Positions 4,935 to 15,003 of a DNA stretch of 64,000 nt are shown piece after piece. The notes below the pieces were generated by a model. It did not search any database and had not been told where the DNA came from. It saw only the letters and a list, made by a program, of their open reading frames with translations. Made by a program: the position numbers and the translations under genes. How positions within the stretch are numbered: position 1 is the stretch's first letter; every line of letters starts with the position of its first letter. Source of the DNA: Saccharofermentans sp. (GTDB lineage: Bacteria > Bacillota > Clostridia > Saccharofermentanales > Saccharofermentanaceae); NCBI GenBank assembly GCA_024403695.1, contig JAKSRI010000006.1, positions 5,488 to 69,487 of the forward strand, read 5' to 3'.

Positions 4935-4965
4935 TGTTTGTCTCCTGTTTTCTTAAAAATATACA

Positions 4966-4989
4966 AAAGTGCCCTAAGCAGAGCACTTT
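4966..4989 (-). terminator. Terminator after the pur cluster
   Basis: Minus strand AAAGTGCTCT-GCTT-AGGGCACTTT-TG. Confidence 0.65.
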
Positions 4990-5010
4990 CGTAATAAATA
5001 CTAGTTTTAA

Positions 5011-6192
5011 TTAATGGTGGAAGAGTCTGATACCTGTGAATGCCATAGCGAGGCCAAGGTCATCACAAGCCTTAATAACGAGGTCATCTCTTACAGATCC
5101 ACCTGGCTGAGCGATGTATCTAGCACCACTTCTGTAACCTCTCTCGATGTTATCAGAGAATGGGAAGAAAGCATCAGAACCAAGAGCTACGTCAGTGAGC
5201 TGATCAAGCCAAGCTCTCTTCTTCTCAGCTGTAAAGACTTCTGGCTTTGTTGTAAAGATGTTCTGCCACTTACCCTCAGCGAGTACGTCCATGTAATCCT
5301 CACCGATGTAGAGGTCGATAGAATTATCTCTGTCAGCTCTCTTAATATCCTCACGGAATGGGAGATTAAGAACTTCTGGAGACTGACGGAGCCACCAGTT
5401 ATCTGCCTTAGAACCAGCAAGACGTGTGCAGTGGATTCTGGACTGCTGACCAGCACCAATACCGATTGCCTGACCATCCTTTACGTAGCATACAGAGTTG
5501 GACTGTGTGTACTTAAGAGTGATAAGAGAAATGATAAGGTCTCTCTTAGCCTGCTCTGGGAAATTCTTGTTAGCTGTTGGAATGTTCTCGAAGAGCTTAT
5601 CGTCGATAACGAGCTCGTTTCTACCCTGCTCGAAAGTAACACCAAATACTTCCTTGTGCTCGAGTGGAGCTGGAACGTAATTAGGGTCAATCTTGATGAT
5701 AGCGTAGTTACCCTTCTTCTTTGTCTTAAGGATCTCAAGTGCCTCTGGCTCATAATCAGGAGCAATAACACCATCAGAAACCTCACGCTGAATCATCTTA
5801 GCTGTGCATACATCAACCTTATCAGAAAGGGATATAAAATCACCAAAGGAAGACATTCTATCTGCACCACGAGCACGAGCGTATGCGCAAGCAAGTGGAG
5901 AAAGCTCACCGAGGTCATCTACCCAGTAAATCTTCTTAAGAACATCTGAAAGAGGCTGTCCTACAGCTGCACCAGCTGGAGAAACGTGCTTAAAAGATGT
6001 TGCTGCTGGGAGACCAGTAGCTGCCTTAAGCTCTTTTACAAGCTGCCAACCATTGAAAGCATCAAGAAGGTTGATGTAACCTGGCTTACCATTAAGAACC
6101 TCGATAGGAAGCTCAGAACCGTCATTCATGTAAACTCTGGATGGCTTCTGGTTAGGATTGCATCCATACTTTAACTGCATTTCGTTAGACAT
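5011..6192 (-). CDS. purH: Monofunctional AICAR formyltransferase (PurH transformylase domain only)
   Basis: LKYGCNPNQ, SFKHVSPAG, KYTQSNSV, GAGQQSRIHC, SDAFFPF, QPGGS, RLFHH. No N-terminal MGS/cyclohydrolase domain. Confidence 0.92.
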   Translation of the reverse strand: MSNEMQLKYGCNPNQKPSRVYMNDGSELPIEVLNGKPGYINLLDAFNGWQLVKELKAATGLPAATSFKHVSPAGAAVGQPLSDVLKKIYWVDDLGELSPLACAYARARGADRMSSFGDFISLSDKVDVCTAKMIQREVSDGVIAPDYEPEALEILKTKKKGNYAIIKIDPNYVPAPLEHKEVFGVTFEQGRNELVIDDKLFENIPTANKNFPEQAKRDLIISLITLKYTQSNSVCYVKDGQAIGIGAGQQSRIHCTRLAGSKADNWWLRQSPEVLNLPFREDIKRADRDNSIDLYIGEDYMDVLAEGKWQNIFTTKPEVFTAEKKRAWLDQLTDVALGSDAFFPFSDNIERGYRSGARYIAQPGGSVRDDLVIKACDDLGLAMAFTGIRLFHH

Positions 6193-6210
6193 GTGAAATA
6201 TCTCCTTTAA

Positions 6211-6927
6211 TTAAACATTCTTGTTAATGATTCTTGTATCAGCCTCACCTGTAGCGATATCAATATAACGTACAAAGAGAGAAACCTTGTTGTCCTCATT
6301 GAGGTTAGACCATACCATATTTGTGAACTCATCAATATTACCAGAAAGAGCTACCTTCTCTGGCTCACCCTCAAATGAAGGAAGTGGATTACCATCACCC
6401 ATATATGTGTGGATAAATCTACCGATACCAGCCTTAGGCACATCGTATGTATATGTATTTCTGATGCAGCACTCTGGATCTCCATCATCAGACTTAAGGA
6501 TAGAAAGTGCGAAATCATACTTACCATCAACAATATTCATAACACCAGAAATTCTAGGAGTATAGTTAGGAGCATCGTGCTCATACTTTCTCTCTCTTAA
6601 AGACTCCTCGAAAGTCTTACCAGCTGCGAGACCATCGCGAACTGTATCTGTCTGATCACCATTAGTTACGATAGTTGTATTACCAAGAACACGAACTGGG
6701 TGATAAATAATAAGCTCAGGAGCAACAAGCAATGTAGAAGGATCAAAAGCCTCTGTCTGAATTCCATCCTCAGTTGTTGTAAATACTCTGTTACGGCTAG
6801 AAGCACTTCTACCCATAATAAAATAAGCTGTTACAGCATACTTTCCGTCATCAGATGTACCGATTACGATACCTCTTCCTGGATAAGCGTTTGTGCTCAA
6901 AAGCTCGCTCAAATCTAAAGTCTTCAT
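6211..6927 (-). CDS. purO: IMP cyclohydrolase, PurO-like Ntn fold
   Basis: YPGRGIVIG, YFIMGRSASSRNR, IVTNGDQTD, EHDAPNYTPRISG; adjacent to a cyclohydrolase-less PurH. Confidence 0.85.
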   Translation of the reverse strand: MKTLDLSELLSTNAYPGRGIVIGTSDDGKYAVTAYFIMGRSASSRNRVFTTTEDGIQTEAFDPSTLLVAPELIIYHPVRVLGNTTIVTNGDQTDTVRDGLAAGKTFEESLRERKYEHDAPNYTPRISGVMNIVDGKYDFALSILKSDDGDPECCIRNTYTYDVPKAGIGRFIHTYMGDGNPLPSFEGEPEKVALSGNIDEFTNMVWSNLNEDNKVSLFVRYIDIATGEADTRIINKNV

Positions 6928-6942
6928 TTTACATATCTCCTT

Positions 6943-7563
6943 TTAATTAAATTCAACTCTGTTATTTACCACTGATATTTTACCATCAGCAATATATCTA
7001 ATAGCTTTAGGCATAATAACCTGCTCACATTCCTTCATGATTCTCTTCTGAAGCACTTCAGGAGTATCATCAGGCAATACTTCAACTGCCTTCTGGAAAA
7101 TAATAGGTCCCTCATCATAATTCTCATTAACAAAATGAACTGTAGCACCAGAAACCTTAACACCCTTAGCAATTACAGCCTCATGTGGGTGGATTCCATA
7201 CATACCGGCACCGCAAAAAGCAGGAATAAGTGCTGGATGAATATTAATGATTCTGTTGGAATAAGCACTTACAACCTTCTTTCCTAACAAAGAAAGGTAT
7301 CCAGCGAGAACGATAAGCTCTGCACCACTATTCTGAACTTCTTCAAGAACCTTAGCATCCCACTCATCTCTAGAAGCAAAATCCTTAACAGAAAGCACCT
7401 TACCAGGAATGTTGTTATCTGCAGCTCTCTGGAGAGCGTATGCATCCTTATTAGATGCAATTACAAGGGAAATCTCTACACCACTAAGATAACCACTCTT
7501 AATGTTATCAATAATAGCCTGTAAATTAGTTCCTCCACCAGATACAAAAACAGCAATCTTCAT
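6943..7563 (-). CDS. purN: Phosphoribosylglycinamide formyltransferase
   Basis: VSGGGTNLQA, LAGY, INIHPALIP, GATVHFV.E.YDEGPII. Confidence 0.97.
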   Translation of the reverse strand: MKIAVFVSGGGTNLQAIIDNIKSGYLSGVEISLVIASNKDAYALQRAADNNIPGKVLSVKDFASRDEWDAKVLEEVQNSGAELIVLAGYLSLLGKKVVSAYSNRIINIHPALIPAFCGAGMYGIHPHEAVIAKGVKVSGATVHFVNENYDEGPIIFQKAVEVLPDDTPEVLQKRIMKECEQVIMPKAIRYIADGKISVVNNRVEFN

Positions 7564-7572
7564 TTATTCACC

Positions 7573-8988
7573 TCATTTATAAGATACAGAGTGTACGTTC
7601 TTAATAGAATCATCTACCTTACCAGCAACATAATTACCATCAAAACATGCACTACAGCAATCACATTTAATTCCATTAAGTGATGCTTTGAGAGATTCCA
7701 AACTGATATACCCAAGAGAATCAGCCTCGATCAACTCCTTAATCTCTTCCAAAGATTTAGACTGACCAGGAAGGTCCTTAGCCTCATCAGCATTTACTCC
7801 ATAGCAGCATGGATACTTAACCATAGGAGAAGCAAGTCTAACATGAACTTCCTTAGCTCCATTTTCCTTAAGGAATTTAATGATATGCTTAGTTGTTGTT
7901 CCTCTTACGAGTGAATCATCAACAATAGCAATTCTCTTACCTTCAATAGCAGGCTTCAGAACAGCAAACTTCATCTTAACTGCAAGTTCACGCTGATCCT
8001 GAGTGGACTTAATAAATGTACGTCCAACATATCTATTCTTAAGAAGGCCTGTGCTAAATGGAACACCAAGAGCATCAGCATAACCAAGAGCTGCTGTATT
8101 ACCAGAATCAGGAGCACCAATTACAATATCACACTCACATGGCTGTTCCTTGGCCAAAGCCTTACCTACGTTATATCTTGACTCAAATACGCTAGTTCCA
8201 TCGATATAGGAATCAGGTCTAGCTACATATACATATTCAAATACGCAGATTTTACCGTTCTTAACCCTATCCTCTGAAGCAACATCAACATTAACATAAA
8301 GAGACTTAACCTCATATTTATCAATAACAACAACCTCACCTGGCTCCAACTCACGAACAAATACTGCATCAAGAGCATCAAAAGCACATGTCTCGGAGGA
8401 TACCATATATGTATTATCCTTCTTACCAAGAGCAAGTGGTCTGATACCATATGGGTCTCTAACGGCAATAAGCTTGTCATCAGTCATAAAAACGAGAGAA
8501 TAAACACCCTGCACTTCCTTAAGTGCGCATGCGATAGCTTCTTCTGTGGAGGAAGCACCAACACGTTTGCGCGAAATAAGTGAGAGCACTGTCTCGGAGT
8601 CTGTGCCAGTCTGGAAGATAGCACCCATCTCCTTAAGGTTTTCTCTGATTTTCTCACCATTTAGAAGTACTGCGTCACAGGACAAAGCAAGGTTACCCAC
8701 GGAAGATCTGATAGCAATTGGCTGAAGTCCTTCCATACCAACTGTTCCGTCACCGCCTCTCGCGTGACCGATAGCACAACTACCCTCGAGAGCATTTAGT
8801 GTAACATCATCAAAAACTTCAGTTACGAGACCATTTTGTTTATGTACCAGAAATGCTCCGCCCTTATTAACTGCAATTCCTGCAGATTCCTGACCTCTAT
8901 GCTGAAGAGAAAAAATACCATAGAATGCTGACTTAACAACATCCTTAGTACTACCATCTCTATTAATTACACCAAATACACCACTCAT
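7573..8988 (-). CDS. purF: Amidophosphoribosyltransferase PurF homolog with degenerate glutaminase site
   Basis: LQHRGQESAG, SETCA, CVFEYVY, PDSG, KNRYVGRTFI, VDDSLVRGTT and Fe-S cysteines are present. The N-terminus is MSG, not MCG. Confidence 0.92.
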   Translation of the reverse strand: MSGVFGVINRDGSTKDVVKSAFYGIFSLQHRGQESAGIAVNKGGAFLVHKQNGLVTEVFDDVTLNALEGSCAIGHARGGDGTVGMEGLQPIAIRSSVGNLALSCDAVLLNGEKIRENLKEMGAIFQTGTDSETVLSLISRKRVGASSTEEAIACALKEVQGVYSLVFMTDDKLIAVRDPYGIRPLALGKKDNTYMVSSETCAFDALDAVFVRELEPGEVVVIDKYEVKSLYVNVDVASEDRVKNGKICVFEYVYVARPDSYIDGTSVFESRYNVGKALAKEQPCECDIVIGAPDSGNTAALGYADALGVPFSTGLLKNRYVGRTFIKSTQDQRELAVKMKFAVLKPAIEGKRIAIVDDSLVRGTTTKHIIKFLKENGAKEVHVRLASPMVKYPCCYGVNADEAKDLPGQSKSLEEIKELIEADSLGYISLESLKASLNGIKCDCCSACFDGNYVAGKVDDSIKNVHSVSYK

Positions 8989-8990
8989 TA

Positions 8991-9494
8991 TTAGGCCTCC
9001 ATAGCCTTAATCTTATCCTGAAGCTTTGCATCTTTTGCAAGAACTTCACTCTTCATTTCCTCTTTATAAGCAGCAAGCTTATCTGCGAGCTCGCTATCAG
9101 CGATAGCAATCATCTGACAAGCAAGAATAGCGGCATTCTTACCACCATCAATGGCAACAGTTGCTACTGGAATACCTGTAGGCATCTGGACTGTAGCATA
9201 AAGAGCATCAACACCATTAAGTGAACCACCCTTACATGGAATTCCGATAACTGGAAGTGTTGTATTAGCAGCGAGAACGCCACCAAGATGAGCTGCAAGA
9301 CCAGCTGCGGCGATAACAACAGAGAATCCCTTCTCACGTGCAGTTCTAGCGAGCTCCTCAGCTCTCTCTGGTGTTCTATGAGCAGATGCTACATGAGCCT
9401 CGAACTCTACACCAAACTTATTAAGTAACTTAAAACATCCCTCAAGAATAGGAAAATCTGAATCAGATCCCATTACTACTAATACTTTACTCAT
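8991..9494 (-). CDS. purE: AIR carboxylase / N5-CAIR mutase PurE
   Basis: MGSDSD, SAHRTP, AGLAAHLGG, QMPTGIPVATV. Start ATG 9494 has an AAAGGAG SD. Confidence 0.97.
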   Translation of the reverse strand: MSKVLVVMGSDSDFPILEGCFKLLNKFGVEFEAHVASAHRTPERAEELARTAREKGFSVVIAAAGLAAHLGGVLAANTTLPVIGIPCKGGSLNGVDALYATVQMPTGIPVATVAIDGGKNAAILACQMIAIADSELADKLAAYKEEMKSEVLAKDAKLQDKIKAMEA

Positions 9495-9508: not shown

Positions 9509-10627
9509 TTATTCGTCTTCTTGCGCCCAATTAAGGCGATTCATTACTCTGTAATAATCCTCAGAACCCCACTCATAAGGCTTTGGACAATAGTCATTTC
9601 CAGGTCTCTTAGAAGTCTGAGAATAAGGTATAACATTCAATCTGTAGTCTACACAATAAGTGTTTGTCTCGTCCATTATAAATTCACACTGAATTATTGC
9701 TGAATCAGGGTCGGATAATCCAGTATTACCACCAAAACAGAAGTTTGAAAGACTATAGAAAATGTATTTTCCATTATATTTCTCGATTGGCTGGAGTCTA
9801 TGTGGATGATGACCAACTACAATATCAGCACCATAATCAATAAGATCATGTGCAGTAATAACCTGATCGTCTCTTGGACTGTAATCTTTCTCGATTCCCC
9901 AGTGACATGAAACGATGATAATATTACATCCCTGTTCTTTAAGCTGATCAATTAAAGGATGAGCTGTAGCAGCAGTATCTCCATCGACCATATCGATACC
10001 ACACATACCAATCTTAACGCCTCTAACCTCATATGTAGCAACGCTATACTGGTTGCTCCACTTAATACCAACGGAATCCATGGCATTCTCAGTGTCAGTA
10101 AGTCCCTGCTCATAGTAATCAGCACTATGGTTGTTAGCGAGGTTAACCGCATCAATACCAGCAAATGTGAGCATCTGTGTATATTCCTGAGGTGCGCCAA
10201 AAACATACTCCTTTACTTTGTAAGAAGTCGCATTTGTTATTGTGCCCTCAAAATTAACAAGTGTCATATCATCATTATTAAATAATTCCGCACAATTTTT
10301 AAAACAGTAAGTGTAATCACCATTAACAACAGCATCGAAACCATCAGGTGATCCGTTCCAAGCTACTGCCTCTGCCAGAGTGCAGTCACCTGTAAAAGAA
10401 ACAAGAATATGCTGTGGTTCAGGTGTAGGCGTAGGAGTTGGTGAAGGAACAGTTTCCACGATAGTAATCTCAGGAAGTTCAATTTCCTGTTTGGATTCAG
10501 TAATAAGTAAAGATTCTGAGAACTTAGTCTCAGAACCATTTACAGGTGACTTGCTACAAGCTGCACATAAAAGTACAGCAAGCATACAAATCATAATTAA
10601 TATTCTTGTGAATCTATTAGAATTCAA
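9509..10627 (-). CDS. CapA/PGA_cap family metallophosphoesterase-like lipoprotein
   Basis: Lipobox AAC, PT linker, FTGD, VNFEG, ANNHSADY, SCHWG, GHHPH, YSLSNF. Confidence 0.88.
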   Translation of the reverse strand: MNSNRFTRILIMICMLAVLLCAACSKSPVNGSETKFSESLLITESKQEIELPEITIVETVPSPTPTPTPEPQHILVSFTGDCTLAEAVAWNGSPDGFDAVVNGDYTYCFKNCAELFNNDDMTLVNFEGTITNATSYKVKEYVFGAPQEYTQMLTFAGIDAVNLANNHSADYYEQGLTDTENAMDSVGIKWSNQYSVATYEVRGVKIGMCGIDMVDGDTAATAHPLIDQLKEQGCNIIIVSCHWGIEKDYSPRDDQVITAHDLIDYGADIVVGHHPHRLQPIEKYNGKYIFYSLSNFCFGGNTGLSDPDSAIIQCEFIMDETNTYCVDYRLNVIPYSQTSKRPGNDYCPKPYEWGSEDYYRVMNRLNWAQEDE

Positions 10628-13143: not shown

Positions 13144-15003
13144 TTACTCTACTGTAACACTCTTAGCAAGATTACGTGGTTTATCAACATCACAGCCCTT
13201 ATTGACTGCCATATAGTAAGCAAATAACTGACATGGTAATGCAGCCAGTATTGGTGAAAGCATTTCGTCACAATCTGGGATAACAAACTTGACGTCACAG
13301 GAGAGATCTACACCAGAAACCCTCTCAGGAACGATAGCAAGCACTGTTGCTCCACGTGTAGCAACTTCCTTAATGTTACTCTCCATCTTACCCACAAGTG
13401 CATCCTGAGTGATAGGACTAACTACTAGAGTACCCTCCTCGATAAGTGCGATAGTTCCGTGCTTTAACTCACCACCAGCATAAGCCTCAGAGTGAATGTA
13501 CGAAATCTCTTTAAGCTTGAGTGAAGCCTCCATGGAGAGATAATAATCAAGACCTCTACCAATAAAGAAAATACTTTCACAATTAAACTCCTTAGAAGCA
13601 AATTTCTGAATCTCATTCTGCTTCTCAAGAATTGTAGTTAATTTCTCAGGAATAGCGAGAAGCTCCTGCTGATAGAATGCATACTTCTCATCATCAAGCT
13701 TGCCCATAGTATGAGCGAATTTCAACGCGATAAGATACAAACAGCCAAGCTGTGTGGTATATGCTTTTGTAGAAGCAACAGAAATCTCAGGACCTGCTGC
13801 TGTATACAGAACATAATCTGCTTCTCTGGCGATAGTACTTCCAATAACATTTACAATAGCAAGTGTCTTTGATCCTCGAGCCTGTGCCTCGCGCATTGCC
13901 TGACGAGTATCAAGAGTCTCACCTGACTGTGAAATAACAATAGTTAATGTCTTATCATCAATTATAGGATCGCTATAACAGAACTCAGAAGCAACACCAC
14001 ATACAACTGGGATACGGCAAAGTTTCTCAATAAGATACTTACCAACACAACCAGCATGATATGCAGTACCACATGCGATGATATTAATCTTGTTAATAGA
14101 ATCCATATATGCCTTATCTACAGGGAAATGCTCGAGATAAATCTCATTATCCTTGATTCTTGGACGAATTGTAGCATCAAAAACCTTAGGCTCTTCGTAC
14201 ATTTCCTTCATCATGAAGTGAGCGTAACCGCCCTTCTGAGCTGAGTCTGTATCCCACTCAACCTTAGAAACCTCATAATCAATAGGATCTCCAAGTGGAT
14301 CAAAAATCTCGATAGAATCCTTAGTCATAACAAGGAGACAATCATCATCCATAAATACAACATCACGTGTGTACTCGATAAGTGCAGGAATATCAGAAGC
14401 AATAAAGTTCTCTCCTTCACCTACTCCGATAACAATAGGATTATCCTTCTTTGCACAAATAAGCTTATCTGGCTCATCAACACAAAGAATACCGAGAGCA
14501 TAAGAGCCAACGATATCGCCAAGAGCTTCTCTTACTGAACCAATAAGATTAGTAAAACCATTCTTCTTGTAATAGTAATCAATAAGCTGAGCAGCAACCT
14601 CTGTGTCAGTATCAGAATTAAACTTATAACCACGCTTAATAAGGAACTTTCTAAGTTCTACATAGTTCTCGATAATTCCATTGTGAACAACACAAATCTT
14701 CTCGTTCATAGAAAGATGTGGATGAGAATTCTCATCACTTGGAGCACCATGAGTTGCCCATCTAGTATGACCGATACCAGCGCTAATTGCATTTGAAGAA
14801 TCTTCGTCAAGAGAATATCCCTCCTGGGAAACTGCCTTACGAAGTTCCTCTACCTTACCCTTACGCTTAATAAGGTGATACTCATTATCCTTAATAAATG
14901 AAACACCTGCTGAGTCATATCCTCTATACTCGAGACACTCAAGACCCTTAATCAACACAGACAAAGTGTTACGAGCACCGATATATCCTACAATACCGCA
15001 CAT
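13144..15003 (-). CDS. glmS: Glutamine-fructose-6-phosphate aminotransferase
   Basis: MCGIVG, GHTRWATHG, HNGIIEN, SQSGET, VASTKAYT, ELKHG, PRNLAKSVTVE. Confidence 0.99.
   Translation of the reverse strand: MCGIVGYIGARNTLSVLIKGLECLEYRGYDSAGVSFIKDNEYHLIKRKGKVEELRKAVSQEGYSLDEDSSNAISAGIGHTRWATHGAPSDENSHPHLSMNEKICVVHNGIIENYVELRKFLIKRGYKFNSDTDTEVAAQLIDYYYKKNGFTNLIGSVREALGDIVGSYALGILCVDEPDKLICAKKDNPIVIGVGEGENFIASDIPALIEYTRDVVFMDDDCLLVMTKDSIEIFDPLGDPIDYEVSKVEWDTDSAQKGGYAHFMMKEMYEEPKVFDATIRPRIKDNEIYLEHFPVDKAYMDSINKINIIACGTAYHAGCVGKYLIEKLCRIPVVCGVASEFCYSDPIIDDKTLTIVISQSGETLDTRQAMREAQARGSKTLAIVNVIGSTIAREADYVLYTAAGPEISVASTKAYTTQLGCLYLIALKFAHTMGKLDDEKYAFYQQELLAIPEKLTTILEKQNEIQKFASKEFNCESIFFIGRGLDYYLSMEASLKLKEISYIHSEAYAGGELKHGTIALIEEGTLVVSPITQDALVGKMESNIKEVATRGATVLAIVPERVSGVDLSCDVKFVIPDCDEMLSPILAALPCQLFAYYMAVNKGCDVDKPRNLAKSVTVE

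Follow-up and report, generated by a model that had tools for sequence, protein, structure and literature searches.

The first committed step of purine biosynthesis, catalyzed by the amidophosphoribosyltransferase PurF, is described in textbooks as glutamine-dependent; to our knowledge, the use of ammonia by PurF is regarded as a side reaction in vitro or as a property of mutants, and has been shown only for laboratory mutants. Loss of glutamine hydrolysis is known from β-lactam synthetase and carbapenam synthetase, where an N-terminal class II domain, of the N-terminal nucleophile (Ntn) type, persists without Cys1; these enzymes descend from asparagine synthetase B and catalyze a new reaction, unlike the gene product described here, for which the synthase reaction is presumed to be unchanged. 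This product, PurF-A (protein P0001), is encoded in a stretch of 64,000 nucleotides from the genome of a rumen-type bacterium, Saccharofermentans sp. (assembly GCA_024403695.1, contig JAKSRI010000006.1, positions 5,488 to 69,487), referred to below as the window, and has Ser at the position of the catalytic Cys. We consider it reasonably probable that PurF-A is a glutaminase-dead, active 5-phosphoribosyl 1-pyrophosphate (PRPP) amidotransferase that uses free ammonia.

Bacillus subtilis PurF, a [4Fe-4S] enzyme (1AO0, 1GPH), has in common with P0001 the two-domain fold, the PRPP motifs, the flexible loop, the cluster cysteines and the pathway step; it differs in that P0001 lacks the N-terminal propeptide characteristic of the B. 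subtilis type and carries Ser for Cys1, Asp-Ala for Asn101-Gly102 and Gly for Tyr74. Escherichia coli PurF with Cys1 replaced by Ser or Ala is recorded as having lost glutamine use and kept the ammonia-dependent synthesis of phosphoribosylamine (PRA) (Mei & Zalkin 1989, as cited in PMC3261824), a behaviour which, as far as that citation describes it, matches the one proposed for PurF-A; however, those enzymes lack an Fe-S cluster and carry point mutations made in the laboratory, whereas PurF-A is natural, fixed in its genus, further remodelled at the site and sometimes without a back-up. A natural PurF paralogue with Ser for Cys, Mlab_0150, was noticed in Methanocorpusculum labreanum by authors who doubted its role as a glutamine PRPP amidotransferase (Brown et al. 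2011, Biol Direct 6:63, PMC3261824); it bears Ser like PurF-A, but it is archaeal and a recent duplicate. In the literature, no study of natural Cys-less PurFs was found beyond that remark.

Identity and Active Sites of PurF-A

The PurF-A gene is read from the minus strand, a detail absent from the earlier note on this DNA, and its features are collected in Table 1. The protein scores 440 bits over residues 3-453 against TIGR01134, the equivalog model for EC 2.4.2.14 (cutoff 350), contains the Pfam domains GATase_6/7 followed by Pribosyltran, and can be aligned over its whole length with B. subtilis PurF (1AO0; E 7e-117, about 41% identity). Its AlphaFold (AF2) model, with a predicted local distance difference test value of 85.4 and a predicted template modelling (TM) score of 0.84, has 1AO0, 1GPH, 6LBP and 1ECF as best Foldseek matches, with TM scores of 0.86-0.89 to the first three. 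These matches identify PurF-A as a full-length PurF of the Fe-S type. The ATG stands 2 nt after the purE stop, and the two genes, judging from the GGAGG inside the end of purE, are translationally coupled. The reading frame is closed by a stop six codons upstream, with no Cys codon in the interval, which leaves no other start from which Cys1 could come; on these grounds, and given the good Shine-Dalgarno sequence, a mis-called start concealing an upstream Cys was ruled out.

In the alignment with 1AO0, Ser2 of P0001 falls on Cys1; GHVRYAT is aligned with GHARGGD (residues 74-80) and AHNGNLVN with SCDAVLLN (residues 103-110), so that Asp105-Ala106 takes the place of the oxyanion-hole pair. Thus, both the N-terminal Cys and the Asn-Gly pair expected of a class II glutaminase are missing, and the equivalents of the glutamine-binding Arg73 and Asp127 are present as Arg77 and Asp130. 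Because of the three replacements, at Cys1, at Asn101-Gly102 and at Tyr74, glutamine hydrolysis by the known mechanism is impossible in P0001. The phosphoribosyltransferase (PRTase) half is intact: it retains PDSG, the flexible loop KNRYVGRTFI with its GRTFI motif, which is invariant across the clade, and VDDSLVRGTT, of which D357, D358, S359, R362, G363, T364 and T365 are invariant in the clade alignment (A1). The earlier note had read the Met-Ser-Gly start as a Cys1 to Ser change, GHVRY(A/S)T as altered to GHARGGD and HNG as altered to CDA, with the PRTase motifs and the Fe-S cysteines retained, and the alignment bears it out on each of these points. Its hint that the motif YGVN might betray a regulatory or inactive paralogue found no support; Cys-bearing PurF-A orthologues in sister genera read YGVS, so the motif deviates independently of the Cys1 loss and was ruled out as a mark of inactivity.

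Origin and Distribution of the Ser Type

More than 100 cluster representatives with 57-77% identity to P0001 were retrieved from 5.8 billion proteins; their named sources are Saccharofermentans sp., Saccharofermentanaceae and "Ruminococcaceae bacterium YAD3003". Position 1 is Ser in 116 of the 116 full-length 90%-cluster representatives that start with MSG, at identities within this range, and the feature is thus not due to chance. All 20 same-genus genomes carrying PurF-A have the Met-Ser-Gly start (with GTG as start codon in one) and an AGY codon for Ser, a single step from the TGY found in all Cys-type relatives. A sequencing or assembly error, or a pseudogene, was ruled out by the recurrence of Ser in these 20 genomes and in the 116 representatives, with intact frames.

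PurF-A of the sister genera has a short propeptide, 8-12 residues before the Cys (..W/I-x-EECGVFG), and retains Asn-Gly. In the phylogenetic tree the Ser clade is monophyletic, with a Shimodaira-Hasegawa-like approximate likelihood ratio test (SH-aLRT) support of 100 and a stem length of 0.43, and is nested among the Cys-bearing PurF-A sequences; this topology implies a single change from Cys to Ser, in the purF of the operon itself, accompanied by loss of the propeptide. The genus contains a stepwise series of states at positions 1/101/102: the earliest branches of the Ser clade, the genomes G055 and G057, read S/N/S and S/C/S, G026 reads S/S/S, and the crown group, which includes the window sequence, reads S/D/S or S/D/A. 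The mapping of the variant across relatives that the earlier note had suggested thus yields a Ser fixed genus-wide, with a single origin, and a position 101 that is mostly Asp. The window adds a third, recent and cleanly polarised origin of a Cys-less PurF inside the operonic PurF lineage.

PurF Paralogues and Species with a Single PurF

The window genome (2.43 Mb in 47 contigs, 96% complete) contains three PurF-like genes, encoding P0001, P0002 and P0003. P0002 (PurF-B) is canonical, with MHEECGV.., GHVRYST and AHNGN, a TIGR01134 score of 529 bits and 44% identity to P0001; its gene is solitary, located between a transglutaminase-like gene and a divergent gene without a Pfam match that, from its Cys-rich N-terminus, may be radical S-adenosylmethionine (SAM)-like. 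P0003 (470 aa) is Cys-less, with Gly at position 1 (MGGFFGV), DYHSH for LQHRGQ, an intact PRTase motif, 35% identity to P0001 and a TIGR01134 score of 191 bits, below the cutoff; P0001 differs from this "DYHSH" type in reading SLQHRGQE and in scoring above the cutoff. All of the proteins described here carry the NCBI-style annotation "amidophosphoribosyltransferase".

Among 61 genomes of the family (Saccharofermentans or Saccharofermentanaceae where the sources name the closest relatives), nearly every one has two paralogues, PurF-A (49-69% identity to P0001) and PurF-B (42-47%), and about 10 have a P0003-type paralogue. PurF-A is invariably found between purE and purN in the loci compared, and PurF-B is present in 18 of the 20 congeners carrying a Ser-type PurF-A. 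Two other same-genus genomes, G047 and G051 (loci L053 and L037), are without PurF-A and have instead a divergent PurF-B and a P0003-type paralogue. A Cys-bearing protein with 74% identity to P0001, P0009, combines a PurF-B-like propeptide and Cys (MKVMSDKLHEECGV) with CDT at the oxyanion site; it was set aside as a probable assembly chimera because it comes from a single 1.8-kb contig (1808 bp, European Nucleotide Archive) and its N-terminus is PurF-B-like, although it could be a recombinant.

In G055 (95% complete) and G057 (94%), the Ser-type gene, full length and intact, is the only PurF homologue found. PurF-B adjoins the radical-SAM-like gene in most congeners; in these two genomes its place beside that gene is taken by a haloacid dehalogenase (HAD)-like hydrolase, the contigs being 139 and 131 kb long. 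Their formylglycinamidine ribonucleotide (FGAM) synthase retains GICNGFQ. From genomes with a Ser enzyme as sole PurF, these two and those of the Tissierellia type described below, we infer that PurF-A would form PRA from PRPP.

Selective Constraint on PurF-A

PurF-A and PurF-B were compared in the same 18 genomes, so that divergence times are identical. The mean pairwise identity of the N domain is 68.5% in the Ser type vs 68.1% in PurF-B, and that of the C domain 78.1% vs 75.4%; together with the lack of frameshifts or stops in the Ser-type gene of the 20 genomes, these values indicate that the Ser type is under purifying selection, with an N domain constrained as strongly as that of PurF-B. 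A general decay of the N domain was ruled out, its rate being equal to that of the PurF-B N domain. Of the alignment columns with 93% or higher conservation across all the family's Cys-bearing PurFs, only seven are altered in the Ser clade: C1S, the Val of GHVRY, N101, G102, A139S, S307L and P454V/I. In a sliding window the largest loss of constraint is in the glutamine loop (0.59 vs 0.94 in PurF-B), followed by the oxyanion strand (0.66 vs 0.93), and no other region comes close. As the loss is confined to these two elements, it is the catalytic parts of the glutaminase that are relaxed; the PRTase site, the fold and the loop that forms the channel are maintained.

Within the 116 representatives, residue 101 is D in 97, S in 13, C in 3, N in 2 and E in 1, and residue 102 is S in 101, T in 9, A in 4 and C in 2. 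Ser1, Gly2, Arg26, Gly27 and Asp127 show no or almost no variation in the clade; the Arg73 equivalent is R or K and the Asp127 equivalent D in 115 of the 116.

Cys-less PurFs in Other Lineages

A wider sample comprised the 150 nearest representatives, one per 50%-identity cluster. Positions 1/101/102 read C/N/G in 131 of the 150, and about 14 full-length representatives are without Cys1, several of them pairing Ser1 with Asp101; the tree of the representatives requires 5-8 changes of the Cys state. P0001 groups with the Cys-bearing P0122 and P0123, apart from P0126, P0167, P0169 and P0251, and these separate positions point to a separate origin of the Ser1 found in Tissierellia. The P0126 group, whose named members are Tissierellaceae (bacterium HCP3S3_D8), Tissierella (sp. 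MSJ-40) and Wansuia hejianensis, has the MSG start in 111 of 120 sequences and HDG in every sampled one, and most keep GHVRY. At the loci of this type an ATG or TTG is followed by AGY and GGN, Ser1 and HDG occur together in 18 of 18, and in 10 of 10 genomes searched the protein is the sole PurF homologue. In Tissierellaceae bacterium HCP3S3_D8 the Ser1/Asp101 purF lies inside an operon with the order FGAM synthase-purE-purF-purM-purN-purH-purD, and the FGAM synthase itself has lost the Cys and His of its class I glutaminase, reading GVGNGLE where the window genome has GICNGFQ. The operon thus combines two disabled glutaminases of unrelated fold, which argues for glutamine independence rather than for a novel Ser-based glutaminase. 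P0169, another Ser1/Asp protein, is encoded in a purL-purF-purM-purN cluster.

The Tissierellia-type PurF and PurF-A have in common the Met/Leu(TTG)-Ser-Gly start, the acidic residue 101, the intact PRTase half and the location in a pur operon. The Tissierellia type differs in its separate origin, in keeping GHVRY and Gly102, in being always the sole PurF and in having an operonic FGAM synthase without the glutaminase triad, whereas in the window genome FGAM synthase is intact and PurF-B coexists. The raw association of Ser1 with an acidic residue 101 is strong (7 of 9 against 1 of 130, Fisher p 2e-9); when the comparison is reduced to phylogenetically independent contrasts, only 4-5 remain and the sign test for coupling is not significant. 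A single nucleotide change turns Cys into Ser or Gly at position 1 and Asn into Asp or Ser at position 101, and these are the sterically tolerable outcomes, so that mutational accessibility may explain the recurrence of the pair, which is suggestive of convergence.

Two further groups of sequences were observed. P0236, from metagenome contigs (L107/L108:8001-9329), is a distant Ser1/Asp101 PurF-like protein with a propeptide-like extension, encoded outside a pur operon in the cluster ThiC-ThiC-CobS-[PurF-like]-CobT-fragment-methyltransferase, followed by two B12-radical-SAM genes, which we take to resemble an anaerobic benzimidazole (bza) cluster; the bza pathway draws on the purine intermediate aminoimidazole ribonucleotide (AIR). 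In Alistipes metagenome-assembled genomes (MAGs; loci L088, L089 and L091), PurF homologues have the apparent start MSVLGVYG, without an N-terminal Cys-Gly and with AHNG kept, the start sites being those predicted.

Proposed Function and Alternatives

In the proposed mechanism, removal of the initial Met would expose Ser1, and PurF-A would make PRA from PRPP and free ammonia. The NH3/NH4+ of an ammonia-rich cytoplasm would take a route by the vestigial glutamine pocket and interdomain channel to attack C1 of PRPP, as in the E. coli Cys1 mutants; that ammonia still travels by pocket and channel is suggested by an N domain as constrained as that of PurF-B and by the invariant flexible loop. Bypassing glutamine would save the ATP of glutamine synthetase, and the ammonia-rich habitats of the rumen and of digesters would provide the ecological logic. 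In most species of the genus, the window species included, PurF-B would cover glutamine-dependent synthesis, presumably when ammonia is scarce. A natural ammonia-dependent PurF had been put forward in the earlier note, and each of its predictions that computation could check is in its favour, the support coming from the genus-wide purifying selection, from the operon slot, from a relaxation confined to the glutaminase, and from the occurrence of a Ser enzyme as sole PurF both in two congeners and in the independent Ser1/Asp101 clade.

Since a natural Cys-less PurF occupies the operon slot, is as constrained as its paralogue and in some species has no other PurF beside it, whether free ammonia is used physiologically at the first purine step can be tested directly. 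The genus offers an unusually clean comparison set: its sister genera contribute Cys-bearing orthologues, and it contains intermediates, a crown group and, in the same genomes, an internal control paralogue. The matter bears on the glutamine and ATP economy of energy-limited anaerobes in ammonia-rich habitats, and on pathway reconstruction, since databases label such proteins as ordinary glutamine amidotransferases; it also illustrates how a two-site channelling enzyme evolves after the death of one site.

Several points weigh against an ammonia-dependent PurF-A. The use of ammonia is something that we infer from sequences. With the canonical PurF-B present, a requirement for the Ser enzyme is not demonstrable in the window species; the earlier note had named a second, Cys-containing purF, together with inactivity of PurF-A, as one outcome that would overturn its proposal, and of these two the former was found. 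Within the genus, the argument from a sole PurF is drawn from two draft assemblies of MAG grade. The nucleophiles of FGAM synthase, GuaA and GlmS are retained in the window genome, so the organism has not abandoned glutamine generally; GlmS, which the earlier note had correctly described as intact, keeps MCG, GHTRWAT and HNG, and these three enzymes and PurF-B, all with their nucleophiles, rule out a lineage-wide drift of amidotransferases. Finally, the Arg73 (R/K) and Asp127 equivalents are conserved, Ser1 is invariant, and Ser102 is kept whether its codon is TCN or AGY, a pattern hinting at continued binding of some ligand in the pocket, which might be NH4+, another donor, or glutamine in the role of an effector. 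A tentative extension of the proposal, to which we give a minor share of our confidence, takes up this point and regards the Ser1-type PurFs as dedicated ammonium-capturing enzymes, not merely PurFs minus a glutaminase. The old glutamine pocket would have been rebuilt as an anionic antechamber (the free amine and hydroxyl of Ser1, Asp101, Ser102 and Asp127) in which NH4+ would be bound and deprotonated before NH3 passes to the channel, and the apparent Km for ammonium would be lowered at the pH of the rumen. This design would have had at least three origins, and the genus would preserve the series C/N/G, S/N/S, S/C/S or S/S/S, and S/D/S at positions 1/101/102.

The same conserved residues could serve a different chemistry, in which Ser1 acts as an Ntn nucleophile, as in penicillin and cephalosporin acylases, and hydrolyses glutamine or another amide in a pocket remodelled to Ser1, Asp/Ser101, Ser102, Arg/Lys73 and Asp127. 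A Ser in all 116 representatives, following a Met whose removal permits a free alpha-amine, would fit such an enzyme, as would the deletion of the propeptide, which leaves the N-terminus exposed, the conservation of Arg73, Asp127 and Ser102, and the pairing of Ser1 with an acidic residue 101 that recurs in other lineages. We nevertheless regard it as unlikely, since an Asp carboxylate is a poor oxyanion-hole donor, residue 101 varies among D, S, C, N and E, and the glutamine loop is the least constrained element and carries indels, which is not how a catalytic site behaves; moreover, a single nucleotide substitution in the Cys codon TGY can give no small residues other than Ser and Gly, so that their recurrence needs no catalytic role, the unrelated PurL glutaminase of the Tissierellia clade is disabled as well, which speaks for glutamine independence, and E. 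coli C1S PurF is described, in the citation given in PMC3261824, as being without glutamine-dependent activity.

A role without catalysis, as a pseudoenzyme subunit of PurF-B, a sensor of glutamine or purine nucleotides, or a redundant copy in slow decay, would account for glutamine-binding residues kept without the catalytic ones and for the PurF-B partner in the window genome and in 18 of 20 Ser-type congeners, but two congeners have no such partner, the 20 genomes show no frameshifts or stops, the PRPP motifs, flexible loop and Fe-S ligands are invariant, the C domain is conserved above that of PurF-B and the gene, coupled to purE, stands where the operon has its purF; we therefore think this role quite improbable. 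Still less do we expect a PRPP-dependent transferase that uses a nucleophile other than ammonia or serves a non-purine pathway, with a product other than PRA. Its pocket, remodelled yet conserved, and the PurF-like P0236 in a ThiC-CobS cluster, which suggests that such enzymes can be recruited elsewhere, are in its favour; the family-wide position between purE and purN, the same as that of the Cys-bearing orthologue, the sole PurF of species that keep the rest of the operon, and PRTase-site residues conserved in Cys-PurFs and unchanged except for S307L and P454V/I speak against it. The reading of PurF-A as a glutaminase-dead enzyme fed by free ammonia is accordingly the one we retain.

Genomic Context

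On the minus strand, the PurF-A gene is preceded by a PGA_cap gene and purE and followed by purN, a gene for a PurO-like inosine monophosphate (IMP) cyclohydrolase and one for a PurH limited to 5-aminoimidazole-4-carboxamide ribonucleotide (AICAR) formyltransferase (AICARFT); a strong terminator-like hairpin after the last of these probably closes the operon (Table 1). The order PGA_cap-purE-purF-purN is kept in all 54 PurF-A loci compared, locus L024 alone being without PGA_cap. No Rfam family matched upstream of either purF (PurF-A or PurF-B), and the idea of a riboswitch or other known RNA was dropped; in a promoter scan the number of matches was not above that in shuffled sequence.

Table 1. 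Positions of the features discussed; numbers without a prefix refer to the window.
Feature	Position	Strand	Basis or remark
PGA_cap-family gene (capsule-synthesis-like, metallophosphatase)	9509-10627	minus	directly upstream of purE
purE (N5-carboxyaminoimidazole ribonucleotide (N5-CAIR) mutase)	8991..9494	minus	TIGR01162, 199 bits
GGAGG Shine-Dalgarno sequence, within last purE codons	8996..9000	minus	sequence read; 7 nt upstream of PurF-A ATG
PurF-A (P0001), Ser1 type, Fe-S-type amidophosphoribosyltransferase, 471 aa	7573..8988	minus	TIGR01134, 1AO0 match, AF2 model
First codons ATG AGT GGT (Met-Ser-Gly)	8988..8980	minus	sequence read
Codon 2, AGT (Ser), position of catalytic Cys1	8983..8985	minus	alignment to B. 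subtilis PurF
Glutamine loop GHARGGD, residues 74-80, in place of GHVRYST	8749..8769	minus	alignment; Arg73 equivalent kept, Tyr74 equivalent Gly
Asp105-Ala106 (GAC GCA), in place of oxyanion-hole Asn101-Gly102	8671..8676	minus	alignment
PRPP-binding motif VDDSLVRGTT, residues 356-365, intact	7894..7923	minus	alignment A1 across clade
[4Fe-4S] ligand cysteine span	7645..8247	minus	aligned to B. subtilis cysteines; invariant in A1
Cys248	8245-8247	minus	[4Fe-4S] ligand equivalent
Cys394	7807-7809	minus	[4Fe-4S] ligand equivalent
Cys445	7654-7656	minus	[4Fe-4S] ligand equivalent
Cys448	7645-7647	minus	[4Fe-4S] ligand equivalent
purN (glycinamide ribonucleotide (GAR) formyltransferase)	6943..7563	minus	TIGR00639, 211 bits; directly downstream of PurF-A
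PurO-like IMP cyclohydrolase	6211..6927	minus	PF07826 at 1e-63
AICARFT-only PurH	5011..6192	minus	NF005492, 719 bits
Terminator-like hairpin, 14 pairs then T run	4962..4993	minus	directly after AICARFT stop; pattern match only
GlmS	13144..15003	minus	motifs retained
P0003, third PurF-like gene of the window genome	own genome contig C1:5315-6457 region (L003:1492-2904)		
FGAM synthase beside Ser1/Asp101 purF, Tissierellaceae bacterium HCP3S3_D8	L070:2167-5493		class I glutaminase Cys and His lost

The PGA_cap gene adjoining purE on its 5′ side is conserved across the loci of the family and is an unexplained neighbour in a pur operon. In the genus of the window, the final two purine steps are divided between the PurO-like IMP cyclohydrolase and the AICARFT-only PurH (5011-6927 region); in the sister genera (loci L054-L067), purN is followed by a longer, seemingly conventional purH with 25-29% identity to the AICARFT of the window.

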